33,156 nt of DNA from Sphingomonadales bacterium (GTDB lineage Bacteria > Pseudomonadota > Alphaproteobacteria > Sphingomonadales > Sphingomonadaceae): assembly GCA_017304125.1 (NCBI GenBank), contig JAFKLV010000370.1, forward strand, positions 1-33,156, in the 5' to 3' direction. Below the pieces are notes generated by a model, which worked only from the letters and a program-made list of their open reading frames with translations, did no database searches and was not told the DNA's origin. Positions 4,419 through 30,829 of this stretch are shown piece by piece (positions within the stretch are counted from its first letter, which is position 1; each line of letters begins with the position of its first letter). Both the position numbers and the translations under genes were made by a program.

Positions 4419-4439
4419 CGTCCCCTTCCCCGCCGCCGC

Positions 4440-6806: not shown

Positions 6807-6854
6807 GCGGTTAATCCTCCCCTGTCACGGCCAGCGGCATTCATGTGCGCAGCC

Positions 6855-7079
6855 GATATTGTTTGCAGCCCCAATGCTATGCTGCACGAAATTCAGCGTC
6901 AACCAAAAAAGGTTGGACCGCAAACTTGTTTTTGCACGGCGCGATGCGCGCCGAATGTGCACGCAGAAACAGTTACTTATCCAAATGTCGCCGGGTGTTG
7001 AGGGAATCCGCGAGGGTCGTTCAATGCCTTCGCCGCGTCGCAGTTTATAATTTGACAGCAAACAATATCCATGCTGTCA
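6855..7079. promoter_or_regulatory. Divergent promoter region with a repeated 12-mer (GCAAACAATATC), a TATAAT box and an 8-bp inverted repeat
   Basis: GATATTGTTTGC at 6855-6866 is the reverse complement of GCAAACAATATC at 7058-7069. TATAAT is at 7046-7051 and TGACAGCA-N11-TGCTGTCA at 7053-7079. Confidence 0.5.
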
Positions 7080-7153
7080 GTTGCTCAACACGGCGGGTCG
7101 CGACGCGGCTGCGCCGGCACGATAACGATGGTAAATTCGGGGGCGGGGACGCG

Positions 7154-10153: not shown

Positions 10154-10177
10154 TCACCCTCCCCGCCCCCCGGGAGC

Positions 10178-10213
10178 AGGGCGGCGCGCCGGCGCGGGCC
10201 GCCCTTTTTTTTT
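10178..10213 (+). terminator. Rho-independent terminator
   Basis: Stem AGGGCGGC (10178-10185) / GCCGCCCT (10198-10205) followed by a T run to 10213, about 25 bp after the amidohydrolase 2 stop. Confidence 0.85.
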
Positions 10214-10218
10214 GTGCT

Positions 10219-11289
10219 TCACACCTGACGCTTGCGGACCGACCAGACGAAGCCGTCATACCAGAAGTGGAGCAGCGAGCAGGCGATGAACGGCGCGACG
10301 AGCCAGCGAACGCTGCCCGTCGCCGCCGCCGCATAGCCGAGCCCGAATATCGCGCTGCCGGCGAAGAACAACAGCGCCGCGCGGTGGCGGTTGCCGCGCC
10401 CGAGCAGGCCGGTCATGCGGCCGCCTTCCTTGGTCCACACCAGCGCGAAATATTGCACGGCGTGGTAGAGATTGACCGTCGCCAGCGCGACCAGCGGCGG
10501 CGAGAAACCCCAGGCGAGGATCGAGACCGCGCCGGTGACCAGCAGCGTCGCCAGCTTATGCGCCGGCAGCCGGTATCCCGCGCGCGACGCGCGATGATAA
10601 TCGATCGCGGTGCGGCCGATCACGACGCCATAGAGGCTGATCGCCGCCAGCCGGATGACATGGTTTTCGCCGGCCAGCACCCCCGGCAGCGTGGTCAGCG
10701 CGTGGAATGCGGTGCCGTCGAATTTGAGGAAATGATCCATATGCGTGGCAAGCGCGGCGCCGGCCGCGATCGGCCCGACATAGAGCGCCCAGTTCAGTCG
10801 GAGATCGGTGGCGCGCAACTGGTGCGGCGGGTTGCCGGCCTTCATGTCGTAGATGCGCGCGAAGCCGAAATTCTGCATCGCCGAATGATGCACGTCCCAG
10901 AAAACCGCGAGGACGGAGGCGAGGATCAGCGCGGTCGGCGACAGCAGCAGCAGCGCGATCAGCACGACCGGCACGACGGTAAGCCGCATGCGATAGGCGC
11001 TGAACACCTCACGGTTCAGATAGGCGCGCGGCACCACCGCGATCAGATGCGCCCAGGTCAGCACCGACACCGCGCCGAACAGCCCGATCACCATCGGCGC
11101 GGCGGCGGCCTGCGGCGCCAGCGCGTCCCACCCGCGCAGCCACGCCTGAATGAGCAGGAAGGCGAGCAAAGGCGCCCCCCAGAAGAACAAGGCATCGCGC
11201 CGCGGCCCGAGAATCGCATGCGCCGGATCGGCCAGCGCGCCGGACGGGCCCGACGCGAAAGAAGACGAATAGTGCGTGGCCAAACCCAT
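10219..11289 (-). CDS. Uncharacterised polytopic membrane protein with His motifs (candidate membrane metalloenzyme)
   Basis: Roughly 9-10 hydrophobic segments. Motifs WAHL...RAY, WDVHHSAMQNFG, YHAVQY and HFWYDGFVW. Confidence 0.75.
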   Translation of the reverse strand: MGLATHYSSSFASGPSGALADPAHAILGPRRDALFFWGAPLLAFLLIQAWLRGWDALAPQAAAAPMVIGLFGAVSVLTWAHLIAVVPRAYLNREVFSAYRMRLTVVPVVLIALLLLSPTALILASVLAVFWDVHHSAMQNFGFARIYDMKAGNPPHQLRATDLRLNWALYVGPIAAGAALATHMDHFLKFDGTAFHALTTLPGVLAGENHVIRLAAISLYGVVIGRTAIDYHRASRAGYRLPAHKLATLLVTGAVSILAWGFSPPLVALATVNLYHAVQYFALVWTKEGGRMTGLLGRGNRHRAALLFFAGSAIFGLGYAAAATGSVRWLVAPFIACSLLHFWYDGFVWSVRKRQV

Positions 11290-11363
11290 TCTCCGACAAG
11301 CGCGGTTGGGGGATTAAGCTGCCACGGTTAACGCTCCATCTAATCTTCGCTTCATTTTCGCGC

Positions 11364-11717
11364 CTATTTCAGCGCCTTGAACTCCGCGATCAGCTTCGTG
11401 CGCTGCGCCGCATCGGGCATGCCGCTATAGATCATCCGCGTCCCCGGCACCGCGGCGCGCGGATTGGCGAGAAAGGCATCGAGCGCCGCCTCGCTCCACA
11501 CGCCCTTTTGCGCCTTCATCGCCGGCGAATAAGCGAAGCCGGCGACCGCGGCCTTGGGCCGCCCGACGACATGGCTCAATGTCGGGCCAAGGCGGTTTTC
11601 GCCCGGCTTGGTCGAATGACACATCGCGCACGGCGCGAGCGCCGCGCCGGTTTGCGCCGATGCCGCCACCGGCGACACGACCAGCGCAGCGCCCACCAAA
11701 ATCAATCGTTCGATCAT
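11364..11717 (-). CDS. Class I cytochrome c (c2-like), periplasmic
   Basis: ATG 11717 follows GGAAAGGGA. It has a signal peptide, a CAMCH heme motif, LGPTLSHVVGR, FAYSPAM and PGTRM (distal Met ligand). Confidence 0.92.
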   Translation of the reverse strand: MIERLILVGAALVVSPVAASAQTGAALAPCAMCHSTKPGENRLGPTLSHVVGRPKAAVAGFAYSPAMKAQKGVWSEAALDAFLANPRAAVPGTRMIYSGMPDAAQRTKLIAEFKALK

Positions 11718-11742
11718 CGCATCCCTTTCCGAAATTCGCGCG

Positions 11743-13692
11743 TCAGCCGCAACAGCCGCCGCCGTGGCGGATGCTCGCCGCATCGCGCGCGGCGGGCACG
11801 TCGCTGCCGGCATTGGCGGCGAAGAATCCGTTCGGCTTGAGCATGAAGCCGGCATATTCGACCGGCATCACCGGAAAATCCTCCGGCTTGCAGACATGGG
11901 TGTGGCCGAAACTGTGCCACAGCACGATATCGGCATTGGCGATATCGCGGTTGGCGGCGATGTAGCGCGGCAGCCCGTCGCCGCCCTGATGCTGGTTGGG
12001 ATAATCGCCGCTCGCATAGCGCTCGGCCGGGTCATAGCGCGTCACCCAGACATGTTTGGCGGCAAAGCCGCCGCGCGCGTGGACATAGCTGCCGGGCTGG
12101 GCGAGCATCAGCGGGCTGGGCTGGACGACCAGTTTATACCCCGGCGCGCCGCCGACCGAATTGGTGCGGTTGGGATTGACGATCTTCCAATAGCGCCCGG
12201 TGCGCCCGTCCGCCTCGCGCGCGGCGTCGCGCTCGCGCTCGAGCGGGCGGCTGACCAGATCGAAGACATTGCCGTGCGGATTGTCGGTGCCCCACGGGCG
12301 CGGATGGAATTCATGTTCGGAGACGCTGTTTCCCTCGTCGCCGTCGACCATCATATGCATGCGCACGTTGAAGAAATGCTGGTGGGTCGGCCCGCCCAGC
12401 CCGTCGTCGACCATTCCGCCCCAGCGATAGCGCTCACCCGGCGCGACCGCCGCGGTCTGGATGATCCCGGTCAGCTTCGCCTCGAGCTGGATCGTGCCAT
12501 CCTGATAGAGATACCAATAGAAGCCGTAATCGTAATTGCCGACCGTCGCGAAGAAGCTGATCACCAGCCGCCGCGAGCGCCGCGTTTCGTGAACCCCGGT
12601 GCGAAATTCGTGATGCTTCCACAGGATGCCATAATCCTCCTCATGCATGCAGATGGCGTTCTTCATCACCATCGGCCGCCCGAGATCGTCGACCGCCGGC
12701 ACGTCGAAATAATGGATATGGCCGAGGCAGTCGCACCCCAGTTCGAGCGCATTGGCCAGCCGCCCCAGGCCATATTCACCGGCATCGAACGCGCTTTTCC
12801 AATAATGATTGGCGGTGGGATCGGCATAAGGCACGACCATCTCGGTCACGCTCGCGCGATAGATGATCGGGCGCTCGCGCCCGTCGTCGGCATAGCTCAA
12901 TTGATGCAGCACCAGCCCCTCGCGCGGGGTGAAGCCGATGCGGAACGACCATTTCTGCCAATCGACCCGCCAGCCGTCGACCGCGAAGCTCGGCCCGTCC
13001 GGCTGGACGATATGCAGCGGCTTCAGGTCGGTGCGCGGCGCGGGGAGATCCTTGGCCTCGTAATTGCGCTTCTTGCGCGGGATCGGGACGATAACGGGCT
13101 CGTCGACCAAGGTGACGATCTCCTCGCGGTTGAGATCGACCACCGCGACCAGCCCCTCGATCGGATGGGCATAGCCATTGTCATTGGGCTGTTCGCGATA
13201 ATAAGCCACCGCGCGGACGCAGCGCCGCCCGGCCTCGGCGGCATAGCCGAAATGGCCGGCGGAAAAGGGATCGACCTGCACCAGATCGATCTCCGCCGCG
13301 CTCAGCCCGCGGCGCGCCACCGCCGCGCGCCACGCCGGATCGCGCTTCACCGCGCGCTCGACCGCCTGAAATTCCTCCAGCATCACCGCGGGCTGGCCGA
13401 ACGGTGGCTGGTCCAGCGCCAGGAGTTGCCAGTCGCTCACCACCCCGGCGGCCAGATCGACCACCGCCTCGATCGTCGCCCCGGTATCGCGCCGCAACAG
13501 CACCAGTGCCGCCTCGCGCCGCAGCGTGTCGCCGGGTCGCCACGCGAGCACCGCCGGCTTGGGCGGCTCGCGTAGCTCGACGCTGACGAAGCGCAACCGC
13601 GGATCACCCCCCTCGCGGGCGCGGATGGCGGCCAGCGCGACATCGATCTCGGCGGTGGTGAGCGGGTCCAGCGGGTGAGTCACGCGCGTCAT
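11743..13692 (-). CDS. tynA: Copper/TPQ primary-amine oxidase
   Basis: N-terminal HPLDPLT, catalytic base in AFDAGEYG, CDC, TPQ consensus TVGNYDY, and Cu ligands HQH and HTH. No signal peptide; GAGAGG RBS. Confidence 0.95.
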   Translation of the reverse strand: MTRVTHPLDPLTTAEIDVALAAIRAREGGDPRLRFVSVELREPPKPAVLAWRPGDTLRREAALVLLRRDTGATIEAVVDLAAGVVSDWQLLALDQPPFGQPAVMLEEFQAVERAVKRDPAWRAAVARRGLSAAEIDLVQVDPFSAGHFGYAAEAGRRCVRAVAYYREQPNDNGYAHPIEGLVAVVDLNREEIVTLVDEPVIVPIPRKKRNYEAKDLPAPRTDLKPLHIVQPDGPSFAVDGWRVDWQKWSFRIGFTPREGLVLHQLSYADDGRERPIIYRASVTEMVVPYADPTANHYWKSAFDAGEYGLGRLANALELGCDCLGHIHYFDVPAVDDLGRPMVMKNAICMHEEDYGILWKHHEFRTGVHETRRSRRLVISFFATVGNYDYGFYWYLYQDGTIQLEAKLTGIIQTAAVAPGERYRWGGMVDDGLGGPTHQHFFNVRMHMMVDGDEGNSVSEHEFHPRPWGTDNPHGNVFDLVSRPLERERDAAREADGRTGRYWKIVNPNRTNSVGGAPGYKLVVQPSPLMLAQPGSYVHARGGFAAKHVWVTRYDPAERYASGDYPNQHQGGDGLPRYIAANRDIANADIVLWHSFGHTHVCKPEDFPVMPVEYAGFMLKPNGFFAANAGSDVPAARDAASIRHGGGCCG

Positions 13693-13791
13693 TTTATTAG
13701 CCTCTCAAACATTTTATCGAACCGGCTTCGCGCAATTTTTCGATGTTTACCGTGTTATGATATCGAATCCGCGCCGCTCGTCGGCTCATAA

Positions 13792-13806
13792 ACAAGTTTG
13801 TTGCCA
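13792..13806 (-). promoter_or_regulatory. Possible sigma54 -24/-12 promoter for the amine oxidase
   Basis: The minus strand reads TGGCAA-CAAAC-TTGT versus consensus TGGCAC-N5-TTGC. Spacing is correct but -12 is GT rather than GC. Confidence 0.3.
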
Positions 13807-13821
13807 AATTAAATCGCCGCT

Positions 13822-13843
13822 GTAAATTATCATGATAAATTAC
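13822..13843. promoter_or_regulatory. AT-rich palindromic operator candidate
   Basis: GTAAATTATCATGATAAATTAC has a perfect 12-bp core TTATCATGATAA (13827-13838) plus GTAA/TTAC arms, and lies between divergent genes. Confidence 0.55.
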
Positions 13844-13857
13844 CGATGGAGAGGCGC

Positions 13858-13899
13858 ATGGCGGGAATCGGGCGGCGAGCGACGGGCGGTGCGTGGTGA
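13858..13899 (+). CDS. Putative 13-aa leader mini-ORF (MAGIGRRATGGAW)
   Basis: GGAGAGG at 13848-13854 precedes ATG 13858. Its TGA (13897-13899) overlaps the GTG at 13896 of the next gene. Confidence 0.35.
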   Translation: MAGIGRRATGGAW

Positions 13900-15014
13900 C
13901 CACCGGCTTCTTCCACGACGAGCGGACCTTGTGGCATTTCGGCGCGGTCCACACCGGCAATCTGCCGGCGGGCGGCTGGGTGCAACCGTCGAACGGCGGC
14001 TTCATGGCCGAGGCGCCCGATCCCAAGCGCCGCATCGTTTCGCTGCTCGAAGTCTCCGGCGTCGCGGCATCGCTCGACCGGCGCAGCGCCGAACCCGCGC
14101 CGGAGGAGGCGCTGCGCCGCGTCCATACGCGCGACTATCTCGATCGCTTCGCACAGCTCAGCGCGGCCGGCGGCGGCACCGTCGGGCAGGATGCCAGTTT
14201 CGGCCCCGGCGGCTATGACAATGCACGGCTTTCCGCCGGACTGGCGATCGCCGCGATCGAGGCGGTGCTGAGCGGGTCGCACGACAATACCTATGCGATG
14301 ACGCGCCCGCCGGGGCATCATTGCCTGCCCGACCGCGGCTTCGGCTTCTGCCTGCTCGCCAATGGCGCGATCGCGGTGGAGGCAGCGATCGCGCGGCATC
14401 GATTGTCGCGCGTCGCAATCCTCGACTGGGACGTGCATCACGGCAACGGCACGCAGGCGATCTTCGAGGCGCGGCGCGATGTGCTGACGATCTCGATCCA
14501 CCAGGACAATTGCTATCCGATCGCCTCCGGCGCCGCGTCGGAGCGCGGCACCGGGGCGGGCGAAGGCTATAATCTCAATATCCCGCTGCTCCCCGGCGGC
14601 GGCGATCAGGCCTATCTCGATGCGCTTGATCTGGTCGTCGCGCCGGCACTGCGGCGTTATCGCCCGGAGCTGATCGTGATCGCCAGCGGGGTGGATGCCA
14701 ATGCGCTCGATCCGCTCGCGCGGATGCTGGCGCATAGCGAAACCTTCCGCGCGATGATGACCCGCGCGCGCGCGCTGGCCGACGAATTGTGCGACGGGCG
14801 GCTCGTCGCGATCCACGAGGGTGGCTATTCCGAAGTCTATACCCCGTTCTGCGCGCATGCCTTGATCGAGGCGCTGAGCGGCGCGCGCAGCGGCGTGGTC
14901 GATCCGATCCTCGATTTCGTCCGCGCGCAACAACCCCATGAGGCGATGCGCGCGCTACAGCGCCGGCTGCTCGTTGAACAGGCCGAAGCGCTCGATCTCG
15001 CGAGGCGCGCATGA
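13896..15014 (+). CDS. Class II histone-deacetylase-like amidohydrolase (acetylpolyamine amidohydrolase/HDAH family)
   Basis: RPPGHH, GFGFCLLAN, DWDVHHGNGTQ, ISIHQ, SGVDANALDPL and HEGGY. Start is GTG at 13893 or 13896. Confidence 0.94.
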   Translation: MTTGFFHDERTLWHFGAVHTGNLPAGGWVQPSNGGFMAEAPDPKRRIVSLLEVSGVAASLDRRSAEPAPEEALRRVHTRDYLDRFAQLSAAGGGTVGQDASFGPGGYDNARLSAGLAIAAIEAVLSGSHDNTYAMTRPPGHHCLPDRGFGFCLLANGAIAVEAAIARHRLSRVAILDWDVHHGNGTQAIFEARRDVLTISIHQDNCYPIASGAASERGTGAGEGYNLNIPLLPGGGDQAYLDALDLVVAPALRRYRPELIVIASGVDANALDPLARMLAHSETFRAMMTRARALADELCDGRLVAIHEGGYSEVYTPFCAHALIEALSGARSGVVDPILDFVRAQQPHEAMRALQRRLLVEQAEALDLARRA

Positions 15015-16165
15015 AGGCCGGTGCCGCCCCCGCGCCCGAGACATGGGATAAGGTGGCGCGGATCGTCGCGTTCAGCGCGATCGTGCCGCTCGCCTTGCTC
15101 GTCGCGCCGGTGCTGACCACCCAGCTGATCGCCGAGCGCGGGCTGACCCCGGCCGATGTCGGCGATTATTTCCTGTTCGAGCTCGGCGGGATCAGCCTCG
15201 CCTCGCTCCCCGCCTTATGGTGGATGCGCCGCTTCACCTCGCGCCAGATCGCGCCGGTCGCGGCCGGGGTGTTCATTGTCGGCAACCTGCTGTCCGCCAT
15301 CGCCCCCGGCATCGCCTTGCTGTTCGCGATGCGGCTGGTGACCGCGATGGCGGGCGGCGCGCTGATGCTGCTGTGCCTCAACGCCGCCGGCGCCTCGGCC
15401 AATCGCGACCGGCTGTTCGGCTGGTGGATCGCCGGCCAGCTCGTCCTGGGCGCGATCGGGCTGACGCTGCTGCCGCGGCTGTTCGCTTATGTCGGGCTCA
15501 ATGCCTTTTATTTCCTGATGGCCGCCGCAATGGCCGCGGCCTTCCCGCTCGCCTTTCGCTTCGACGCGCCGACGATCGCGCCGCGCCCCGCCGGTGGCAC
15601 GCGACGCGGCGCGCTGCTGCCGGTCGTCGCGATGATCGCGGTGCTCGCTTTCTATGTCGGGCTCGGCGGATGCTGGGCGTTCATGTCGGTGATCGCCGGC
15701 CGCGCCGGGCTGAAGCCATTGCCGGTCGCCGATACGATCGCGCTCGCCTCGCTGCTCGGTATCGCGGGCGCGTTGCTCGCGACCTTTCTCGGCGGGCGCA
15801 TCCGCCGCGGCTATGCGCTGGCGATCGGCTATGCGTTGCTGCTCGGCGCGGTGCTGATGCTACCCGGCCGGCTCGACCTCACCGCCTTCGCCGGCGCGGC
15901 TTATGCCTTCAAATTCTCCTGGACCTTCACCCTGCCGTTCATCCTCGCGGCGATCGCCAGCCGCGATACCGGCGGGGGGATCATGGCGTGGGTCAATATG
16001 GTGATCGGCTTCGGCACCTCGATCGGCCCGGTGATCACCGGGCGCATCCTGAGCCACGCCGGCGCGACGGCGATGCTGGTCTTCTGCGCCGCGATGATCG
16101 CCGCTTCTGTCGCGCTGCTCGGATTGATCGAGGCCGGCGTGGTAACCGGAAAGGAAACGAGATGA
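15011..16165 (+). CDS. MFS transporter
   Basis: About 12 hydrophobic helices in two halves, with an MFS-type loop (LGGRIRRG). ATGA overlap with the HDAC stop. Confidence 0.85.
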   Translation: MKAGAAPAPETWDKVARIVAFSAIVPLALLVAPVLTTQLIAERGLTPADVGDYFLFELGGISLASLPALWWMRRFTSRQIAPVAAGVFIVGNLLSAIAPGIALLFAMRLVTAMAGGALMLLCLNAAGASANRDRLFGWWIAGQLVLGAIGLTLLPRLFAYVGLNAFYFLMAAAMAAAFPLAFRFDAPTIAPRPAGGTRRGALLPVVAMIAVLAFYVGLGGCWAFMSVIAGRAGLKPLPVADTIALASLLGIAGALLATFLGGRIRRGYALAIGYALLLGAVLMLPGRLDLTAFAGAAYAFKFSWTFTLPFILAAIASRDTGGGIMAWVNMVIGFGTSIGPVITGRILSHAGATAMLVFCAAMIAASVALLGLIEAGVVTGKETR

Positions 16166-16533
16166 GCTTCGACACCCCCCGCGCCACGCTCGACGCTTAT
16201 GCGGCAGGCTGCAAGGCGCTCGACCGCGACCTGCTCGCCCGCTGCTTCCACCGCGCTGCGGTGATGAGCGGCGACCTCGACGGGACGATGCTGATCGGCG
16301 GCCCCGCGCCGTTTCTCGACGATGTCGCGGCGCTCGCCGCGACGGGGATTGATCACGCGGATTTCGCCGCCAATGTGATCGAGCTGACCGTCAACGGCCG
16401 CGTCGCGGCCGGCGCGGTTCACTCGACCGCGTTCGCCGGCCGGTACGATTTCCTCGATCGCTTCCATCTGGTCGAGGATGCCGGCGGGTGGCTGATCACC
16501 AGCAAATGCTTCACCACCCTGGGGACGCGCTGA
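16162..16533 (+). CDS. NTF2-like (Lumazine_bd_2/SnoaL-type) small protein
   Basis: ATG 16162 follows AAGGA, with an ATGA overlap. LDAYAAG...LARCFH...AVM and FLDRFHLVEDAGGWLITSKCF are typical of this fold. It is the last 123 aa of track ORF 15217..16533. Confidence 0.8.
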   Translation: MSFDTPRATLDAYAAGCKALDRDLLARCFHRAAVMSGDLDGTMLIGGPAPFLDDVAALAATGIDHADFAANVIELTVNGRVAAGAVHSTAFAGRYDFLDRFHLVEDAGGWLITSKCFTTLGTR

Positions 16534-16539
16534 CGCGCC

Positions 16540-18807
16540 TCACCGCGGGCGATCATGCCCCGCGACCGCCGCGGCGTGAAGCTCGTCGAAGCAGCGCCGG
16601 TCGGACAGCGCGGCCATCAGTTCATCGCGGCTGAGCTTTTCCACCGCATTGATCTTGGCCAGCAAGGCGCCCGCCACCTGCGGCCGCGCGCGCGTCTCGC
16701 GGCGGTGGAGGACATAGAAACGCGGATCGCGCAGCGCCTCGGCAATCACCGCATCGGGCGCGGTGACATCGGGCAGCACATCGCGGAAACGCGCCTCCCA
16801 GCGCAGCACCGCGCGCACCACCGGCGGGGTCTCGATCTCTTCGGGGATCGCGAACAGGTGCCGCGACGCGACGCCGTCGAACGTCCGGCTGGTGATCGCC
16901 GCGATCCAGATCGAGAAGGTGAAGCCCAGCAGCACTGGCGAGAACCAGATCAACAGGTCGATCGGCTCGACCAGCCCGCCCGACATCGCCGAGAGCAGCA
17001 TCGTCTGCGTCCACGGCACATGGCTGATCGAATAGATCATCGCGGCAAGGCAGGCGGTGCCGAGCGCGCTGATCCAGCCGAAATGGCGCACGCACAATTC
17101 CATCGACAGCGGCTCGTCGCCGCGCGCCTGCGTGCCCCAGGTAATGCTCCGGCGCTTCACGAACATCCACAGGAAGCGCGTGATGCAGATCATGATCAGC
17201 GGCGAGAAGAAGAAGGAGAACAGGGTTTCGAGCAACACCGACAGCACCAGCTTGTCCTTGCCGCCGAACAGCCGCGCGCGATCCTGCGCGATATGGATGC
17301 CGACCGCGATCAGCCGCGGCATGAACAGGAAGACGAGCGAGGAGATCAGCAGCATCAGCATCGGCATCTGGATCATCTTCAGGCTGCCGAGGCCGAGCAG
17401 GCCATAATGCAGGAAGTTGAGCATCCCGAACACCGAGATCACCAGGAACGACGCCCATAATGGCGCCGACAGATAGCCCATCGATCCGTTGATGAAGGTC
17501 TCGCGGTGGATCGAACGCAGCCCGCGCAGGAAGACGAAGCGCAGATGCTGGAGATTGCCCTGCATCCAGCGCCGCTCGCGGATGATGAAGGCAAGGATGT
17601 TGGCGGGCATCTCCTCATAGCTGCCCTTGGTATCGGCGAGGAACCACACTTCGTAACCGGCACGCGCCACCAAAGCGGATTCGATGATGTCGTGGCTCAT
17701 CGGCTTGCCGCCCCACGGCTTGGGGCCGGACAAGGTGGGGAGCATCGCATGGCGGACGAACGGGGCCATGCGGAGCATCGCATTATGCCCGATATAGCTC
17801 GCATTCCCCATATACATGGCCTGCAGCCCGTAAGAGAAAACCGAGCCGTAGAGCCGCGCGCCGAATTGCTGCATCCGCCCGAACAGGCTGGTGCGCAGGA
17901 TCGGCGTGGGGTTGGTCTGGAGGATGCCGATGCGATCGTTGCCGGACATCATCCGCAACAGATCGACGATCGCATCGCCGTCCATCACGCTATCGGCGTC
18001 CATCACCAGCATATAATCGTAATCGCCGCCCCAGCGCCGGCAGAAGTCACTGATATTGCCCATCTTCGCATTGGCGTTGCTGACGCGCCAGCGATAGAAG
18101 AAACGCCCCTCGGGCAACGCCTCGCGCAGCCGCTGCACCGCTTCTTCCTCGACGATGCGATAGGCCGGGTCGCGGCTGTCGGAGAGCAGGTAATTGTCGA
18201 AATGATGCGCGAAGCCGGGGTGTTTGGTCGCAAGCGATTCCCACGTCGCGGCGATCCCCGCGGCGACCCGTTCGACATCCTCGTGATAGACCGGATAGAC
18301 GATCGCCACCCGCACATTCGGCAGCGGATCGCACGCGCGATGCGCCGGATGCCACGGATTCCCCTTCGGCCCGCGCAACATATACCAGGTGCCGAGCATC
18401 ATCTTGTAGAAGTTCGCGCACAGGAAGAAGGTCATCGTCCCGTAGACGAGCAGATAGAGCCAGAAGGCGGCTTCTGGCATCTGCTGCGCGCGCAGCATGA
18501 TCGCGGAGAGATAGAGGATCGCCCCGGTCGTCGCGATGGTCAGCGCGAGGCTGACGCGCTGGCGATATTCCACCACGCGCTGCCAGCCGCGCTGCGCCCC
18601 GCGCGCGAAGGGCTTGCTGCGCAAATTGCCCTTCAGCGACAGATCGAGCTGCGGCGTCGCGATCGGCCGGCGGCGCGGCGGCGGCTGGAGCGGGGGCGTC
18701 CCGTCGTCGTCGAGATGGCGGCGCAGGTCCGCCCAGTCGCCGACGCCGCCGTCGGGCGCCCCGTGGAAGCACAGGTGTCGCAGATAGAGTTCGAACGGCG
18801 CGTTCAT
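16540..18807 (-). CDS. mdoH: Glucans biosynthesis glucosyltransferase H (OpgH/MdoH, GT2)
   Basis: Two N-terminal TM helices, PVYHED, LSDS, KMGNISDFCRRWG, MDADSVM, LFGRMQQF, YIGHNA, SHDIIE, GSYEEMP, RRWMQGNLQH, several C-terminal TM helices and IPEE. Confidence 0.93.
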   Translation of the reverse strand: MNAPFELYLRHLCFHGAPDGGVGDWADLRRHLDDDGTPPLQPPPRRRPIATPQLDLSLKGNLRSKPFARGAQRGWQRVVEYRQRVSLALTIATTGAILYLSAIMLRAQQMPEAAFWLYLLVYGTMTFFLCANFYKMMLGTWYMLRGPKGNPWHPAHRACDPLPNVRVAIVYPVYHEDVERVAAGIAATWESLATKHPGFAHHFDNYLLSDSRDPAYRIVEEEAVQRLREALPEGRFFYRWRVSNANAKMGNISDFCRRWGGDYDYMLVMDADSVMDGDAIVDLLRMMSGNDRIGILQTNPTPILRTSLFGRMQQFGARLYGSVFSYGLQAMYMGNASYIGHNAMLRMAPFVRHAMLPTLSGPKPWGGKPMSHDIIESALVARAGYEVWFLADTKGSYEEMPANILAFIIRERRWMQGNLQHLRFVFLRGLRSIHRETFINGSMGYLSAPLWASFLVISVFGMLNFLHYGLLGLGSLKMIQMPMLMLLISSLVFLFMPRLIAVGIHIAQDRARLFGGKDKLVLSVLLETLFSFFFSPLIMICITRFLWMFVKRRSITWGTQARGDEPLSMELCVRHFGWISALGTACLAAMIYSISHVPWTQTMLLSAMSGGLVEPIDLLIWFSPVLLGFTFSIWIAAITSRTFDGVASRHLFAIPEEIETPPVVRAVLRWEARFRDVLPDVTAPDAVIAEALRDPRFYVLHRRETRARPQVAGALLAKINAVEKLSRDELMAALSDRRCFDELHAAAVAGHDRPR

Positions 18808-19920
18808 CTAGCGCAGCACCTGCACCGGGAGGGTCACCTGGAACAGCAGCCCGACGACCTTCTGGATCGAGACGATCGGCGCCTCCGCGACATAGACGAC
18901 ATCGCCGGTTTCGAGCGGGAATTGATCCGCCGCGACCAGCCCGTCGCCGCGCTTCCACGCGAATTCGTAGAGCACCGGCTTCGCCGCCGCGCGCCGGCGC
19001 AGCACGAATACCGCGTGATCATTGGCGAGATTATTGTCGAGCCCGTTGGCCTCGGCGACCGCTTCGGCCAGCACCGGCTGCCGGGCGAAGCCGAGCACGC
19101 CGTTCTTGCGCGTGCTGCCCAGCACCGTCACCTCGACCATCGGCGATTTGCGCACGATCACCCGGTCGCCCGGCTTGAGCGCGATCCGTTGCTCGAACGC
19201 GGCCGAGATCGGCACCTCGACCGGGCCGGCATCGCCGCGCACCACCGAGACGCGCACCGCGGCGCGCGTCGCGGAGAGATCGCCGGTGCCGAGCGTAGCA
19301 TTGCCGTCGCCCAGCGCCTGAGTGATCGCCTGCGCCAGCGTCATCCCGCCGGGGTTCCACGCGATCCGGCTCGGGTGGCCGATCGCGCCGGTCACCAGAA
19401 TGTCGTTCTGCGGCGAGGCGGCGAGCCGCACCGTTGCGCTCGGCTTTTGCAGCACGCGCTGGCTGGCATAGCGCTGTGCGATCGCTTGTTGCGCCTGCTC
19501 CAGCGTCAGCCCCGCCAGCGCGGTGCGCCCGGCATAAGGCAGCAGCACCGCGCCATCGTCGGCGAGCGTGAAGCTGCCGAGCGGGGTCGCCCCGGGCCCG
19601 CCGCCGAACGGCGTGCCGCCACCGGGCAGCGCGGCATAGCTCCACATCGTCACGTCGATGACGTCGCCCGGCGCGAACCGGAACGCCGCATGCGCGGGCG
19701 CGGCGCGCAGCCGGCCGAGCGCGTCATCGAGCGCGCGCTCGCGATCCGATGCCGCCTCGGCCTGCGCCGCCGCGGCCTGCGCCGGGGTGACCCTGACGAT
19801 CTCGACCTCCGGGGTCTTGCGGATCGTATGGGCGGAGGGGCCGCCGCCGGCCAGCGTGCTGCAGGCGCCAAGGCTCAGCGACAGCGCGGCCAGCCCCGCG
19901 ACGCGAAACACCGCGCTCAT
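18808..19920 (-). CDS. Outer-membrane polysaccharide export (OPX; Wza/CtrA/BexD-like) lipoprotein
   Basis: Start ATG 19920 overlaps the upstream TGA. Lipobox LGAC is followed by GGGPS. It has the PES motifs PGDVIDVTMW and DGAVLLPYAG...GLT, grasp repeats, DVVYVAEAP and an amphipathic C-terminal helix. Confidence 0.9.
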   Translation of the reverse strand: MSAVFRVAGLAALSLSLGACSTLAGGGPSAHTIRKTPEVEIVRVTPAQAAAAQAEAASDRERALDDALGRLRAAPAHAAFRFAPGDVIDVTMWSYAALPGGGTPFGGGPGATPLGSFTLADDGAVLLPYAGRTALAGLTLEQAQQAIAQRYASQRVLQKPSATVRLAASPQNDILVTGAIGHPSRIAWNPGGMTLAQAITQALGDGNATLGTGDLSATRAAVRVSVVRGDAGPVEVPISAAFEQRIALKPGDRVIVRKSPMVEVTVLGSTRKNGVLGFARQPVLAEAVAEANGLDNNLANDHAVFVLRRRAAAKPVLYEFAWKRGDGLVAADQFPLETGDVVYVAEAPIVSIQKVVGLLFQVTLPVQVLR

Positions 19921-21095
19921 CGCAGCAGCGCCCACAGCAGGAGGCTGGCGAGCAATGTCCCCGCCATCCACGCCAGCCGATAGGGTTTGTCGGGGGTGCG
20001 CGGCTCGGACGGGTTGCTGATGACGTTCAGATAATAGCGATTCTGCTCGGCGCTCGCCTGCGCCTGTTGCAGCGCCTGATTGGCCTGCCCCAGCAAGGTG
20101 ATGTTGGTATCGCGGCTGACCAGCAGCTTTTCGTAGCGCGACGAGCTGCGCGCCATCTCGGGGAAGTTGCGCGCGGTCGACGCCAGATCGCCGCGCACCG
20201 ATTGCGTCGCGGTCTCGAGATTGTCGGCCTGCGGATTATTGGGGGTCGCACGCGCGATCGCGTCGCGCTGCGACTTGAGGTCGGCCGCCTTGAGCGCGAG
20301 GCTGTTCATCAGCTCGAGGTTGGACTGATAGAGCTGCTTGGGATCGTAGGTGCCGGTCTGGTTGCGGAATTGCGCCAGCGCGGCGAGGTCGCGCTGGAGC
20401 GCGGTTTCGATCGCCTGTTTGCGCTGGGCTGCGTTGCGCACGAAATCGCCCTGCTGCTGCGCGTTCATCGCATCCATGTGCGCGATCGCCTGGGCGAGCA
20501 ATTGCCGCGCGAGGCCATTGGCATAGACCGGATCATAGGCATTGACGTTGACGGTGACGATGCCGCTCTTCTGCTCGATATCGACGTCGACCTGCTTCTG
20601 GAAATAGCGCCACAAGGCGAGGTCGCTCGTCCCGAACATCGTCGCGACGCCGCCGAAGCGGCTCACCAGATCGCCGGTGGCGAAATTGTCGGCGAGCTTC
20701 ATCGGCTTTTCGACGCGGCGAAACGCATCCCACGACCGGAAATATTCGCGCAGGATATAGCCGCCCTGCTCGGAGCTGTCGCCCGACGCGCCGGACAGCA
20801 ACGACGACAGGCTCGGCCCGTTCTGCTTCGGGTTGAGCACGATCAGCGCCGCGGTCGAGGTATAGACCGGCGCGGCGATCAGCCCGAAATAGAGCAATGC
20901 CGCGATATTGGGCAGCAGCACGACGGCGATGAACAACGGCCGGCGCAGCAGCCGCACGAGCCACGACGGTGCCCTTGCGGCATCGGGCTCGGCCGGGGTT
21001 TCGGCGCTGGCGCGTCGGTTGGGAAAGGGCAGCGGCTCGTGCTCGGCCGGCGCGCGCTCCTCTCGCATCCGTTTCACGTCGACTTGGGAATTCAC
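19917..21095 (-). CDS. Capsule export inner-membrane co-polymerase (PCP-3; KpsE/CtrB/BexC-like)
   Basis: N-terminal TM LFIAVVLLPNIAALLYFGLIAAPVYTS, EYFRSWDAF, KSGIVTVNVNAYDP, a coiled-coil periplasmic region, YLNVISNPSEP...PYRL and a C-terminal TM. No kinase domain. AGGAGA RBS before GTG 21095 (alternative ATG 21068). Confidence 0.85.
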   Translation of the reverse strand: MNSQVDVKRMREERAPAEHEPLPFPNRRASAETPAEPDAARAPSWLVRLLRRPLFIAVVLLPNIAALLYFGLIAAPVYTSTAALIVLNPKQNGPSLSSLLSGASGDSSEQGGYILREYFRSWDAFRRVEKPMKLADNFATGDLVSRFGGVATMFGTSDLALWRYFQKQVDVDIEQKSGIVTVNVNAYDPVYANGLARQLLAQAIAHMDAMNAQQQGDFVRNAAQRKQAIETALQRDLAALAQFRNQTGTYDPKQLYQSNLELMNSLALKAADLKSQRDAIARATPNNPQADNLETATQSVRGDLASTARNFPEMARSSSRYEKLLVSRDTNITLLGQANQALQQAQASAEQNRYYLNVISNPSEPRTPDKPYRLAWMAGTLLASLLLWALLR

Positions 21096-21156: not shown

Positions 21157-23547
21157 TCAGAACGAAAAATCGACCCCCAGCCGGAAGGTGCGCGGGCGCA
21201 GCGGGGTGATCTGCGACCGCCCGGTGACGAACGGGGTGCCCAAGGCGAAGCGATTGCCGATGCTGTCGGACAGGTTGGTCGCGCCGAACACCAATCCGAC
21301 GCGTGGCGTCCCCACCCGCATCGTCAGCGCGCTATCGGCATAATCGCCCTGTTCGGCGCCGAGCACCGGGCCGACCCCGATCCGCGACGGCCCGATATAG
21401 CGCGCCCAGCCGGCGACCCGCAGCGTCAGATCGTCGCGCAGCGTGTGCTGCCAGTCGAACCCGGCGCGCGCGGTGAAGCGCGCGACATTGGGGATGCGAT
21501 CGATCCCCCCGTCTTGCAGCGGGGCCGCCGCGAGCAGGAAGGCGCGATAGGTCTGGCTGGGCTGGGTGACCCGGCCGTCATTGACCGCGAAGGACGCATC
21601 GAGCCGCAGCGCGCGGACCGGGCGCCAGCCGACCGACGCCGCAACCGACCAGATCCGCCCGTTGCCGATATTGTCGGTCGAGGGGAGCCCGGCGCTGTCG
21701 AGGAAATCCGCCTGAATGTCGTGCCAGTCGGTATGCGAGACGCCCAGCGAGACATCGAACCCGTCGCGCCGCGGATCGCCATAGCGCAACCCGCCCTCCA
21801 CCGTCTCGACCCGATCGCCCGCGAACCGGCGCACGAAATCGCCGTCCAGCGTCAGCCCGCCGGGCCGCATGCCCTGCTGATAGCGGGCGTAGATCGACAG
21901 TTTCGGCGTGGCCTTGGCGAGCAGCGAGACCGACGGCAGTACCTTGGTCTCGTCATGATCCGCGACGATCGCGGCGCGCGCCAGCAAATCGACGGCGCTG
22001 AACACCGGCGTGGGATCGTGCGCCTCGCCCGACAGCATCGCGCGCGAAACACGGGCGCCCGCGGTCGCGATCAGCCACGGCACCGGGCGGTAGCTCGCCT
22101 CGCCGTAAAAGGTGAGTTCGCTGACGCGATTCTCGACCCCGGTCACCGGCTCGAGCCGGTCGGGGGCACCGAGCGAGCGCGTCAGCAAGGTGCGATTGTG
22201 GACGTAGCTCGCGCCGACCAGCCAGCCGAAATGATCGTCCAGCGGCTGCCACAGCCGCGTCTCGTTGCTGACCAGTTCGGTATAATTATGCTGGCGGAAC
22301 ACCGTCGGGGTGCCGCCCGGCGGGGTCGCGTCATAACGCTCGTCGAGCGTCTGCGCGATGCGCGCGGTGGTCGAGCGGAACCGCACCTTGCCGAAATCGC
22401 GCGACAGGATGAACTCGCCCATCCCGTAGCTCGCGTCGAACCCCTCCGCGACCGCGCTGTTGCGCACCAGCCGCGGCGCGCCGGCATCGGCATATTGGCT
22501 GTCGTCGCCGACGGTGCGTTGATAGACGCCGCCGAGTTCCGCGCGCCAGCCGCCGCCGAGATCGACACGCAGCGCGGCGCGCCCGCCGCCAGTGGTGGTG
22601 CGGTTGATATCGTCGCGCCGGCGCAGCGGATTGTCGATATAGCCGCCGTCGCTGATGCCATAGCCGACGATGCGCAGCGCCGCCCGGTCGCCGAGCACCG
22701 GCAGGTTGAGCGTCCCCGCGATATCGCCGCCGGGCGCGCCATGCTGGGTCGCCGAGACGCCCCCCGCGAACGATCCCGAGGTCACCCCGAATGCAGGCTC
22801 GTTGGGGACGATGCGGATGATCCCGCCGAGCGATCCCGCGCCGTAGAGCGTGCCTTGCGGCCCTTCCAGCACCTCGACCGATTGCACGTCATAGAGTTTG
22901 AGATCGGGATCGGGGGCGTTGTAGGTCAGGCGGATGTCGCCGAAATATTGCCCGACGGTCGCCTGGGTCGGGCCGGTGAAGCTCGAATCCGCGATGCCGC
23001 GGATGAACAATTTGTTGCGCCCGTCGCCAAGATAGGTCGACGAAATGGTGGCGAGGCGGGAGAGCACCGCATCGGTGCCCCCCACCCCGCCCAAATTGAT
23101 GTCGCTGCCCTCGACCACCGAGACGCTGCCGGCATAATCGCCGAGCCGCATATCGCGCTTGGAGGCGACGACGACGACCGTCTCGCCCTCGCCGGGCTGG
23201 TCGGCGGCGGGCGGCGGTGCGCGGCGCGGCCTGGGCCGGGGCGCCGGCTGGGCGCGCGCCGGGCGGATGCGCCACACGCCGGGCTCGATCGCCACCGCCT
23301 CCACCTTGTCGCCCAGCATCCGCCGCACCGCCTCGGGCACCGAATAGACGCCCTTCACCGCCGGGATGCGGCGTTGCCAGATCGCGCCGTCGTCGACGCT
23401 GATGCTGATCTTCGCCTGCCGCCCGAGCGCGGTCAGCACATCCCCCAGCCGGCCGGCGGGAAGGTCGAGCGGATAGGATTGCCCCGCGTGCGCTGGCGAT
23501 GCGGGGACGAGAGCAAGCAGCAGGACGGGGGCGGCCCAGCGGATCAC
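21157..23547 (-). CDS. TonB-dependent receptor with N-terminal STN signalling domain (FecA-type transducer)
   Basis: Signal peptide, then LDLPAGRLGDVLTALGRQAKISI (STN), a Pro-rich linker, TonB box TVVVVA, VEVLEGPQGTLYG and a terminal DFSF. Probable start is GTG 23547, overlapping the fecR TGA (track start 23568). Confidence 0.93.
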   Translation of the reverse strand: MIRWAAPVLLLALVPASPAHAGQSYPLDLPAGRLGDVLTALGRQAKISISVDDGAIWQRRIPAVKGVYSVPEAVRRMLGDKVEAVAIEPGVWRIRPARAQPAPRPRPRRAPPPAADQPGEGETVVVVASKRDMRLGDYAGSVSVVEGSDINLGGVGGTDAVLSRLATISSTYLGDGRNKLFIRGIADSSFTGPTQATVGQYFGDIRLTYNAPDPDLKLYDVQSVEVLEGPQGTLYGAGSLGGIIRIVPNEPAFGVTSGSFAGGVSATQHGAPGGDIAGTLNLPVLGDRAALRIVGYGISDGGYIDNPLRRRDDINRTTTGGGRAALRVDLGGGWRAELGGVYQRTVGDDSQYADAGAPRLVRNSAVAEGFDASYGMGEFILSRDFGKVRFRSTTARIAQTLDERYDATPPGGTPTVFRQHNYTELVSNETRLWQPLDDHFGWLVGASYVHNRTLLTRSLGAPDRLEPVTGVENRVSELTFYGEASYRPVPWLIATAGARVSRAMLSGEAHDPTPVFSAVDLLARAAIVADHDETKVLPSVSLLAKATPKLSIYARYQQGMRPGGLTLDGDFVRRFAGDRVETVEGGLRYGDPRRDGFDVSLGVSHTDWHDIQADFLDSAGLPSTDNIGNGRIWSVAASVGWRPVRALRLDASFAVNDGRVTQPSQTYRAFLLAAAPLQDGGIDRIPNVARFTARAGFDWQHTLRDDLTLRVAGWARYIGPSRIGVGPVLGAEQGDYADSALTMRVGTPRVGLVFGATNLSDSIGNRFALGTPFVTGRSQITPLRPRTFRLGVDFSF

Positions 23548-24491
23548 GGCGATGCGGCGAGCCTCCACCCGGCGCCGTCGCGGATCGCGCGCACCCCGGT
23601 CAGCGCGGCGAAGCGTGGCATGATCCGCTCCGCGCCGCCGTCGAGCCGCACCGTCGCGCGCACCGGCCGCCGCGCCAGCGCGGGGTCGACCGCGACGGGG
23701 GTACCCAGGGTCCGCGCCAGATCGGCCGCCGCCTCGGCCAGCGTCACGCCGTCGAACGAAAGCTGGCCCTGCGCCCAGCCGCCCACCGTATCGGGCGCGA
23801 CATCGGCCAGCTCGACCCGCGACGACCCGTCGGCGACGCGCAGCGACCGCCCGGCGTTGAGGCGCACCGAATTGCCGTCGCGCTGCCAGTCGACCGCGCC
23901 CTCCGATACCGCGATGCGCGTCTCGCGTGCGTCGCGCACGATATCGAACCGCGTGCCGACATCGACCACGCTCGCCCCGCCGACCGCGACGCGGAACGGA
24001 TGCGCCTCATCGTGCCGGACGGTGAAGGTCGCCTGGCCGTGGACCAAGGTCAGGCTGCGCGCATCGTCGCGGCTCGCCTCGAGCCGGGTGCCGCCGTTGA
24101 GGATCGCGCTGCTGCCATCCTCCAGCGCGATCGTGCGCCGCGCGCCGGCCGCCGTCTCATAGACCAGCGGGGCGGCGGGCTGGAGCTGGGTCTCGACCGC
24201 GACCGTGCCGACCACCGCCGCCGCCAGCGCCGCCGCCGCGGGGATCGCCCAGCGGCGCCACGCCGGGCGAGGGGCCGGAACGGGCAAGGGCACAACCTTG
24301 GGCTCGCTCGCCAGCATTGCGACCATCTCGGCCTCCGCCGCGCTCGTGGCATGATAGGCCGCGGCATGCGCAGGGTCGGCCGACAGCCAGCGCTCGAACC
24401 CCTCCCAATCGTCGAACGCAGGGTCGCCGACGCGGACTGCCCAGGCAATCGCTTCGTCCGTCATCGGATCGGGTTCAGGTCGGTTCGTCAT
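23544..24491 (-). CDS. fecR: FecR family anti-sigma/transmembrane sensor
   Basis: DEAIAWAVR, FERWLSADPAHAAAY, one TM, TAAGARRTIALEDGS, VGTRFDI and WAQGQLSFDG. Confidence 0.93.
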   Translation of the reverse strand: MTNRPEPDPMTDEAIAWAVRVGDPAFDDWEGFERWLSADPAHAAAYHATSAAEAEMVAMLASEPKVVPLPVPAPRPAWRRWAIPAAAALAAAVVGTVAVETQLQPAAPLVYETAAGARRTIALEDGSSAILNGGTRLEASRDDARSLTLVHGQATFTVRHDEAHPFRVAVGGASVVDVGTRFDIVRDARETRIAVSEGAVDWQRDGNSVRLNAGRSLRVADGSSRVELADVAPDTVGGWAQGQLSFDGVTLAEAAADLARTLGTPVAVDPALARRPVRATVRLDGGAERIMPRFAALTGVRAIRDGAGWRLAASP

Positions 24492-24521
24492 CTTGTCGCA
24501 CCTAAGACGGAGACTATCGCG

Positions 24522-25034
24522 TCAACCCTCATCCAAAGTGCTCCTGAGCTTCACGAGCACGCCGGTCGCCTTGCGCAGGTCGCTTTCCACGGTGCTGATG
24601 CTCACCCCCAGTTCGTCTGCGATCTGCCGCTGCGGCACGCCGTCGAGGCGGTGGCGGCGGAAGATCTGCTCGACACGCGGGCCGAGCGCGGCGAGCGCCG
24701 CCTGCACCCGCGCCAGCGTTTCGCGCGCGATCAGCACGCGCTCGCCGGCCGGCTCGTCGGAGCGGCCGGGCGCGGTGGCACCGGTCGCCTCGTTCCAGTC
24801 GCGCTCACGGATCGCCGCCTGCCGTAGCGAGCGATGGCGATCGAGCATCAGATTGTTGGCGATGCGATAAAGGTACGACAAGGGCTGCGCGATCGGCCCG
24901 CTCTGCGCGCCGCGCGCGCGCAGCCACATTTCCTGCAACAGGTCCTCCGCCGCCTCCCCGGCGCCATGGCCCTGGAGAAAGCGGAGCAATTGTGCGCGAT
25001 GCTGGAGGAAGACACCTTCGAGGCCCGTCGCCAT
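24522..25034 (-). CDS. ECF RNA polymerase sigma factor (FecI-like)
   Basis: Probable start ATG 25034. Region 2 is AEDLLQEMWLR...YLYRIANNLMLD and region 4 is QRQIADELGVSISTVESDLRKA. Confidence 0.92.
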   Translation of the reverse strand: MATGLEGVFLQHRAQLLRFLQGHGAGEAAEDLLQEMWLRARGAQSGPIAQPLSYLYRIANNLMLDRHRSLRQAAIRERDWNEATGATAPGRSDEPAGERVLIARETLARVQAALAALGPRVEQIFRRHRLDGVPQRQIADELGVSISTVESDLRKATGVLVKLRSTLDEG

Positions 25035-25177
25035 CCTGTCAGTCCTGCGTGCCCGTAAATGGCCTGAAATGACGGTGGATACCGTTCGCGAGGACCGCCG
25101 CATAGGCATCCTCGCCGATAGCCGCAAGTCGCGCGCACCGTGCCAGCGCGGGACAAGCCACGTCGGAAATGAACGCC

Positions 25178-25211
25178 GAGTCACATGACTGTCACGCCGC
25201 GCGCCTAGCGA
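25178..25211 (+). promoter_or_regulatory. Pho-box-like promoter for pit
   Basis: GAGTCAC-ATGA-CTGTCAC (25178-25195) versus PhoB consensus CTGTCAT-N4-CTGTCAY, then 10 bp, then a weak -10 TAGCGA, upstream of a phosphate transporter. Confidence 0.6.
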
Positions 25212-25235
25212 GAGCATGAATCAGGTGGAGCAGCG

Positions 25236-30115: not shown

Positions 30116-30829
30116 ATGAGCCGTCTGCTCGTGCTTGCCTGTGCCTTGCTCGCCGCATCGCCCGCCGCCGGCGGCACCCGCGCGACCTATAATGGCACGT
30201 CGGAGCCCAGGGAACTGGTGGTCGAGATCGCCGACAATGGCGGCGCGGCGCGCGTCTCGGTGCCGGGGCGCGACGATTATGGCCTGATGCTGGGCGATCA
30301 ATTCTATCTGGTGAAGCCGCAGGACGGAAAACCGCAGGTCGCGCGCGTCGCCGATGTGGCCGCGGCGCTCGATCGCGTCATGCCGCCGATCTTCAAGAAT
30401 CTGTTCGGCGCGGTGGGCGGCGCGATCAAGGATACGCCGCTCTATGCGGTGCGCGGCGGATCGAAGACCGTCGCGGGGATCGCGGGCGAGGTGTGGCTGG
30501 TCAAGGGGCTCGACGACGAGAAGCCCGATGCCGCGGCGGAGGTGGTCGTGTCGCATGATCCGGCGCTGGCGCCGGTCGGGCGCGCGCTGGCGGCGTTTCT
30601 GGAAAGCAGCATGGTGATGATGCGCCCGCTGATCGGCAGCGGCGCGGCGATGATGGTGCGGCAGAACCGGCAATTGTTCGCGCTGGGCACGCCGATCGCC
30701 TCCGCCGATCGCTTCACGCTGACCAAAGTGGAGAGCGTGGCGGAACCCGCCAGCCGCTTCGTCCTGCCGGCCAGGACCGCGACGGTCGACGAACTGGTCG
30801 CGGAGATGAAAATTACCCCGACGAACTGA
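30116..30829 (+). CDS. Hypothetical secreted protein (possibly DUF4412-like)
   Basis: Strong RBS GGGAGAGGA, a signal peptide, a beta-rich N half, GSKTVAGIAGEVW and a C-terminal SRFVLP. Confidence 0.7.
   Translation: MSRLLVLACALLAASPAAGGTRATYNGTSEPRELVVEIADNGGAARVSVPGRDDYGLMLGDQFYLVKPQDGKPQVARVADVAAALDRVMPPIFKNLFGAVGGAIKDTPLYAVRGGSKTVAGIAGEVWLVKGLDDEKPDAAAEVVVSHDPALAPVGRALAAFLESSMVMMRPLIGSGAAMMVRQNRQLFALGTPIASADRFTLTKVESVAEPASRFVLPARTATVDELVAEMKITPTN

Follow-up and report, generated by a model that had tools for sequence, protein, structure and literature searches.

A conserved PCP-3, OPX and OpgH-family synthase cassette from Sphingomonadales: a candidate system for glucan export

Gene organization of the locus

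The 33,156-nucleotide stretch of DNA analyzed here (contig JAFKLV010000370.1 of a Sphingomonadales bacterium, hereafter the window) carries on one strand three consecutive genes, called below the trio, which code for a KpsE/CtrB-like polysaccharide co-polymerase (PCP) of class 3, a Wza-like outer-membrane polysaccharide export (OPX) lipoprotein and a membrane synthase of the OpgH/MdoH family (Table 1). The stop codon of the PCP gene (TGA, 19919-19917) overlaps the start codon of the OPX gene (ATG, 19920-19918) as ATGA, and the OPX stop codon (TAG, 18810-18808) abuts the OpgH ATG at 18807, which confirms the tight coupling of the three genes claimed in a preliminary description of this DNA. The OPX length is counted from its ATG, the GTG at 19971 taken by the open reading frame (ORF) finder falling inside the PCP gene. 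An ORF-calling artefact was ruled out, as the genes are intact, conserved and have ratios of nonsynonymous to synonymous substitutions (dN/dS) below 1. Scanning for promoters and terminators was uninformative, with 2 promoter-like sites found for 1.1 expected.

Table 1. Coordinates of the trio and of the features of its synthase
Feature	Position	Strand	Basis
KpsE/CtrB-like PCP-3 gene, 392 aa	19917..21095	minus	TIGR01010, KpsE 8TSH matches, fold
Wza-like class-1 OPX lipoprotein gene, 370 aa	18808..19920	minus	Pfam, Wza alignment
OpgH/MdoH-family membrane GT2 synthase of distinct lineage, 755 aa	16540..18807	minus	NF003958, model, tree
Synthase catalytic core motifs and lineage-specific swaps	17566..18000	minus	alignment of 37 lineage and 45 control OpgH
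~21-residue insertion, residues ~596-616 of the synthase	16960..17022	minus	loop-span comparison

The preliminary description had also found the window devoid of opgG, kpsMT, Wzx/Wzy and any other glycosyltransferase. This held at the level of our searches: no OpgG, ABC-2 transporter, Wzx/Wzy or other glycosyltransferase was matched by Pfam among the 35 ORFs scanned, out of the 98 of at least 90 amino acids in the window, and a six-frame profile search of the contig gave no match at the level of OpgG, KpsM or KpsT.

Conservation of the cassette

To gather related loci, we used OpgH similarity and not gene neighbourhood, which yielded 45 loci from five named and two further genomes, three plasmids and 35 metagenome contigs. 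An OPX gene and then a PCP gene lie directly upstream of the lineage opgH in 32 of the 33 loci with at least 2 kb of upstream DNA, while opgG, kpsM and kpsT are absent from the fetched DNA of all 45, so that the trio proved conserved without opgG or kpsMT, as had been predicted. Where the upstream DNA measures 0.3-2 kb, the OPX gene is present in 5 of 5 loci and the PCP gene is reached in three, and seven loci have no upstream DNA; overall, OPX is present in 37 of the 38 loci having such DNA. The hosts are sphingomonads, a Burkholderia plasmid, two Acetobacter plasmids and metagenomes. The exception among the 33 is locus L073 (1090-5950). Its OPX gene sits at the border of the DNA retrieved, separated by about 4.8 kb of unrelated ORFs from the lineage OpgH, itself split in two frames. 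Control loci behaved differently: opgG accompanies ordinary opgH in 47 of 53 loci and OPX or PCP in none (29 of the 53 had only 1.5 kb flanks), and ordinary kpsE is found with kpsM and kpsT in 16 of 17 loci and with opgH in none.

The junctions are tight in most loci, down to 33-36% OpgH identity, and both they and the gene order are kept across loci of 44-70% GC while the flanking genes vary. Comparing the flanking ORFs all against all, we found no conserved fourth gene (glucanase, anchor enzyme or porin), many contigs being short downstream, and likewise no lipid-anchor or retention gene, no TPR or beta-barrel porin gene and no Wzx, Wzy or initiating transferase conserved across loci. In two loci distant from each other (L044, 8938-12563; L070, ~7300-8155), the gene immediately after the synthase is galU, for UDP-glucose pyrophosphorylase, and it is the next gene in the annotated trio of the Burkholderia plasmid.

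Synthase proteins of the same lineage were recovered from Zymomonas mobilis (on a chromosome-sized contig), Acetobacter, Gluconobacter, Asaia and Swingsia, and also from Granulibacter, Acidithiobacillus, Pandoraea and Burkholderia; for these proteins, the neighbourhoods covered were those on the three plasmids. A profile search with the PCP alignment added no further named organisms. In random samples the lineage occurred in 3 of 400 genomes of the family, 0 of 400 of the class and 0 of 400 of the phylum, and a close PCP in 1 of 300 genomes of the genus. Because the class and phylum samples yielded no further lineage member, whole-genome context could be drawn only from the window's own family. 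The trio is thus a conserved, rare three-gene cassette.

Phylogeny and selection

FastTree separated 37 lineage OpgH from 45 controls with a support of 1.0 and a stem of 1.03, after exclusion by id of 33 duplicate or short loci. The distinct clade expected from the preliminary description was therefore found, and it is built in part by construction, the metagenome scan having used lineage-specific motifs. With the same program, 29 lineage PCPs split from 34 controls with a support of 1.0 and 33 lineage OPXs from 19 controls with a support of 0.79, the lineage proteins being picked by position and the controls of both trees coming all from the window's genus. Tree distances of the partners correlate (0.95 for PCP-OpgH, 0.90 for PCP-OPX and 0.83 for OPX-OpgH, values reached by 0 of 2000 permutations), and linkage alone would give such a correlation whether or not the products touch.

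The dN/dS values with respect to the closest relative are 0.13 for the PCP, 0.15 for the OPX and 0.10 for OpgH, and they range from 0.15 to 0.53 in 20 of 21 more distant comparisons, the remaining one being saturated. All three genes are under purifying selection.

Structure of the three proteins

The synthase scored 674.7 bits on the MdoH profile NF003958 (cut-off 419) and 442 bits on NF003962 (cut-off 328). A sequence search found no solved structure of an OpgH relative, and we relied on a predicted model with a pLDDT (predicted local distance difference test) of 88.0. VIA-align ranked BcsA first for this model (Z 24.0, root-mean-square deviation (rmsd) 4.2, 470 aligned residues), hyaluronan synthase second (Z 21.6) and Cgs third (Z 20.4, rmsd 3.6, 488 aligned). 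The BcsA-like fold is thus common to the channel-forming BcsA and the channel-less Cgs. The first interface helix of Cgs is unwound, according to PMC10901819, and the synthase residues 308-332, which we took as its equivalent, were modelled as a long helix. This helical stretch favours a likeness to BcsA over one to Cgs, without revealing a channel.

The catalytic motifs D210, DADS (270-273), SHD (371-373) and R410/R412/R413/W414, the latter within the RERRW motif at residues 410-414, are common to the lineage and to control OpgH. The 37 lineage proteins differ from the 45 controls by the swaps W331M, W339I, I369P, D411E and C415 to M. Since the swapped residues are placed near the acceptor site by motif order, the linkage or the processivity of the synthase may differ from that of ordinary OpgH. 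A second difference concerns the span from G583 to P624, which measures 41-43 residues in 32 of 32 lineage proteins compared with 20-24 in 45 of 45 controls. The resulting insertion of about 21 residues (~596-616), in the loop joining the last two predicted membrane helices, is likely periplasmic and could be a contact for the PCP. Complex prediction of OpgH 66-670 with PCP 46-392, run on each protein's own alignment and with the controls not folded, was uninformative for a 1:1 pair (score 0.00, mark 0.32), the natural partner being expected to be a ring of eight PCPs.

The PCP scored 192.6 bits on TIGR01010 (BexC/CtrB/KpsE), below the cut-off of 437.5, and this score identifies it as a divergent member of the KpsE family. 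KpsE (8TSH) is its sole sequence match in the PDB (E 1.8e-13) and also the top Foldseek match of its model (E 9e-15; pLDDT 88.8), in which membrane helices at both termini enclose a dome beta-sheet and a long helical hairpin, without any kinase domain. The fold search also showed that this fold is common to Wzz and Wzc. The OPX carries the Poly_export (PF02563, above cut-off) and SLBB (PF22461) domains of Pfam and aligns to Wza (2J58) over residues 79-360. When its lipobox and C-terminus were compared across loci, we found an LGAC lipobox with Cys20 and a conserved C-terminal segment matching the start of the Wza outer-membrane helix.

Search for kpsM and opgG in whole genomes

Three trio genomes of high completeness, G713 (99%), G733 (99%) and G963 (95%), gave no kpsM with a query which matched in 3 of 5 genomes when tried elsewhere, and the 12 ABC2_membrane loci that they contain gave no score with a KpsM profile. 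In three of six related trio genomes kpsM does occur, and all five copies possess their own adjacent PCP, which speaks against the possibility, raised in the preliminary description, that the trio's PCP/OPX pair serves a kpsMT locus elsewhere. As for opgG, it was not found in G295 (100% complete) or in G963, where the trio synthase is the only OpgH match, while G696, G697 and G698 retain a separate opgG-opgH pair. In the ordinary kps locus L120 (G058:C1, 3550-8675), two KpsE-like genes flank kpsM, and paired copies occur in several other genomes of the genus.

The window's own assembly is 84.6% complete. Within it, the trio's PCP is the only KpsE-like gene and no kpsM or kpsT was found, the best KpsT score being 102 bits versus 311-412 for real ones. 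An ordinary opgG-opgH pair is present, split over the contigs C466 and C76; these line up end to end along the operon of a relative with 90-91% identity. The check proposed earlier for separate opgGH and kpsMT genes was therefore positive for the former and, within this assembly, negative for the latter. Because this ordinary pair exists elsewhere in the genome, the window synthase is a second, specialised copy, and a displaced ordinary opgH was ruled out. Contig C466 also carries on its minus strand (locus L001, 427-2646) a 740-residue ORF fusing a CapD-like N-terminus (Polysacc_synt_2) to the C-terminal part of MdoG; homology to the relative's opgG ends at base 1707, and this ORF probably results from a deletion or from a chimeric join in the assembly.

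Proposed mechanism and alternative explanations

We consider it probable, on the basis of sequence comparison, that the trio is a synthase-dependent glucan exporter in which a PCP-3/OPX duct replaces the ABC transporter. The synthase, with its motifs intact, would add glucose on the cytoplasmic side from UDP-glucose, a substrate suggested by the synthase family and by the adjoining galU in two loci. The growing chain would then pass through the membrane domain of the synthase itself, as in BcsA, whose fold is predicted for it. Around the synthase, a PCP-3 ring would be arranged like the KpsE octamer around KpsMT, possibly touching the lineage-specific loop; in PMC11041684, KpsE is described as an octameric cage gripping KpsM via C-terminal helices. 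Finally, passage of the chain through the outer membrane would be the task of the Wza-like OPX, as its family suggests. Given export, the product would rather likely be beta-1,2-glucan, and it may be either long, uncleaved and held at the surface or short and released. The genomic predictions of the preliminary description were thus borne out, and its proposal that OpgH takes the place of the ABC transporter is the best reading of the data, one that we infer.

Several observations weigh against this reading. At the level of the loci, a nearby opgG is also missing from 6 of the 53 ordinary opgH controls; near-duplicates are included (L007/L047, L060/L061, L055/L056), and the counts overstate independence; and a split gene or an interruption, stemming from decay or assembly error, affects 5 of 45 loci (L008, L046, L050, L060 and L073). 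The partly built-in OpgH clade, the single-genus PCP and OPX controls and the correlation expected from linkage belong here as well. At the level of the synthase, the best Foldseek TM-score was obtained with Cgs (0.52), whose membrane domain is compact and without export channel (PMC10901819); that OpgH is itself the membrane channel would fit its BcsA-like fold but not this relative. In addition, the acceptor-side W331, W339 and I369 of ordinary OpgH are swapped in the trio lineage. According to bioRxiv 2023.03.29.533101, biochemical confirmation that ordinary OpgH makes beta-1,2-glucan was never obtained. Caulobacter OpgH works without OpgG, and the periplasmic glucan of Caulobacter is a cyclic hexamer (PMC11389396), so that a long exported polymer does not follow from missing opgG alone. 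The broken locus L008, on the complete chromosome of Sphingomonas sp. MMS24-J13, has both OPX and OpgH split by frameshifts (5856-9258), through decay or sequencing error. A point in favour of the exporter reading is, by contrast, that extracellular (1-2)-beta-glucans were recorded for Acetobacter by a 1985 paper of Amemura cited in two reviews (one of them PMC11842490), a record which coincides with the trio at the genus level.

The alternative that survives best, which we nevertheless regard as unlikely, is that the synthase releases short periplasmic glucans, with the PCP mainly controlling chain length or serving as a scaffold, in the manner of Wzz towards Wzy, and the OPX acting as an overflow exit, so that no continuous duct exists. 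It draws on the periplasmic glucan made by Caulobacter OpgH without OpgG (PMC11389396), on the fold that the PCP has in common with Wzz and Wzc, and on a review which calls the Acetobacter products secreted oligosaccharides (PMC11842490). A complete Wza-like OPX lipoprotein, under purifying selection and kept in 37 of 38 loci, argues against it, and so do the three relatives in which periplasmic glucan has an opgG-opgH pair of its own.

Still less probable is a scenario in which a lipid-linked or cytoplasmic glucan is moved into the PCP/OPX duct by an unlinked ABC transporter. Cgs, a related enzyme, relies on such a separate ABC exporter, and this counts in favour of the scenario. Further points for it are the lack of a membrane channel in Cgs (PMC10901819), the usual caging of KpsMT by KpsE (PMC11041684) and the kpsM present in 3 of 6 related trio genomes. 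Against it, no kpsM-like gene was found in three trio genomes complete at 95-99%, in a search that a very divergent or MsbA-type exporter could escape, and their 12 ABC2_membrane loci score nothing on the KpsM profile; every kpsM found has its own PCP, and where plasmids carry the cassette, the surrounding 9 kb contain no transporter. That the trio is a relic of hitchhiking, in which an opgH travels on one mobile piece with a pair of capsule export genes without cooperating with them, fits its patchy spread (3/400, 0/400 and 0/400 in family, class and phylum), its plasmid-borne copies and the five broken loci of 45, but is very improbable given an order and tight junctions kept to ~33-36% OpgH identity and across 44-70% GC with changing flanks, purifying selection on all three genes, and a 21-residue insertion which tracks the lineage completely.

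Beyond the exporter reading itself, we propose a more tentative idea which we would put slightly short of even: that the trio represents a minimal fourth Gram-negative architecture, a PCP-3-caged synthase with a Wza-type pore, in which three genes would suffice to export linear beta-1,2-glucan and which could be the genetic source, so far missing, of the 1985 Acetobacter glucans.

Neighbouring genes

The closest named relative of the window is Sphingomonas lycopersici (96% OpgH identity), and synteny with the closest relative stops at the OpgH stop codon. Directly upstream of the trio, 62 bases from the PCP start and co-directional on the minus strand, lie genes for an ECF sigma factor, a FecR and a TonB-dependent receptor (21157-25217). 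This set borders the trio upstream in 8 related loci, inverted in L010, and its possible roles are regulation of the trio or uptake of related sugars. The only nearby barrel of the window is a TonB-dependent receptor. The other side (1446-16533) is occupied by a catabolic-looking block with two WD40/PD40-amidohydrolase fusions, a TonB-dependent receptor, a copper amine oxidase, a histone-deacetylase-family protein, an MFS transporter and a lumazine-binding-like protein. ORFs without Pfam match are found at 10150-11331 (plus strand), 11364-11855 (minus) and 30116-30829 (plus).

Comparison with known systems

The trio synthase belongs to the same family as OpgH of the E. coli OpgGH (MdoGH) system and of Caulobacter and has the same catalytic motifs, but it forms a separate long-stemmed clade, carries the 21-residue loop insertion and the changes W331M, W339I, I369P and D411E, and has a PCP-3 and an OPX as partners. 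The typical opgG/opgD beside opgH occurs in none of the 45 trio loci compared with 47 of 53 controls, a feature which is not universal, as Caulobacter illustrates. With KpsMT-KpsE-KpsD (also Ctr, Bex and Vex; PDB 8TSH), the trio has in common a KpsE-fold PCP-3 with two membrane helices and a paired OPX; unlike them, it has no KpsM/KpsT in its loci or in three near-complete genomes and no conserved anchor or polymerase genes, and its only inner-membrane partner is a GT2 of the processive type. The likeness to synthase-dependent secretion of cellulose (BcsA/BcsC), poly-N-acetylglucosamine (PgaCD/PgaA) and alginate lies in the membrane GT2 and in the BcsA fold, predicted in the trio, where the one enzyme would carry out both polymerisation and translocation. 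These classical systems rely on a scaffold of TPR type together with a beta-barrel porin (PMC9603273 and PMC12220298), instead of which the trio has a PCP-3 and an alpha-helical Wza-type OPX. Wza-Wzc, which is Wzx/Wzy-dependent (PDB 2J58, 9R64), also has a class-1 OPX of the Wza kind, whereas the trio's PCP lacks the kinase domain, and neither Wzx nor Wzy nor an initiating transferase is among the conserved genes. Finally, Cgs resembles the synthase in fold and makes beta-1,2-glucan, the product proposed for the trio, but it is a protein of ~2,800 residues with cyclase and phosphorylase domains and no membrane channel, compared with 755 residues for the synthase. The trio thus takes parts from four kinds of system (OpgGH, ABC-dependent, Wzy-dependent and classical synthase-dependent) but fails membership of all of them.

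We found no description of an OpgH-PCP-OPX operon in the open-access literature, the scope of the search leaving aside subscription papers and supplements; papers on Acidithiobacillus treat wza (AFE_1339), ordinary mdoG/mdoH and kps genes with no tie to the trio. PMC12220298 and PMC13721041 keep the scheme of synthase-dependent versus PCP/OPX export, and the proposed route is absent from the schemes in the reviews checked. The trio makes testable the self-translocation by OpgH, the OpgH product without OpgG and the origin of beta-1,2-glucans that are linear and extracellular; the synthase lineage is present in tractable, harmless organisms such as Zymomonas mobilis, Acetobacter, Gluconobacter and Asaia. 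Since the supply of beta-1,2-glucans is scarce and plant immunity is triggered by the oligomers (PMC11842490), a three-gene producer would also be useful. Together, these comparisons place the trio between two routes that reviews separate, synthase-dependent export through a TPR scaffold and a beta-barrel and PCP/OPX export fed by an ABC transporter or by Wzy: it is a candidate crossover of both and, if the exporter reading is true, an indication that a PCP-3 can cage an inner-membrane engine unrelated to its usual one.

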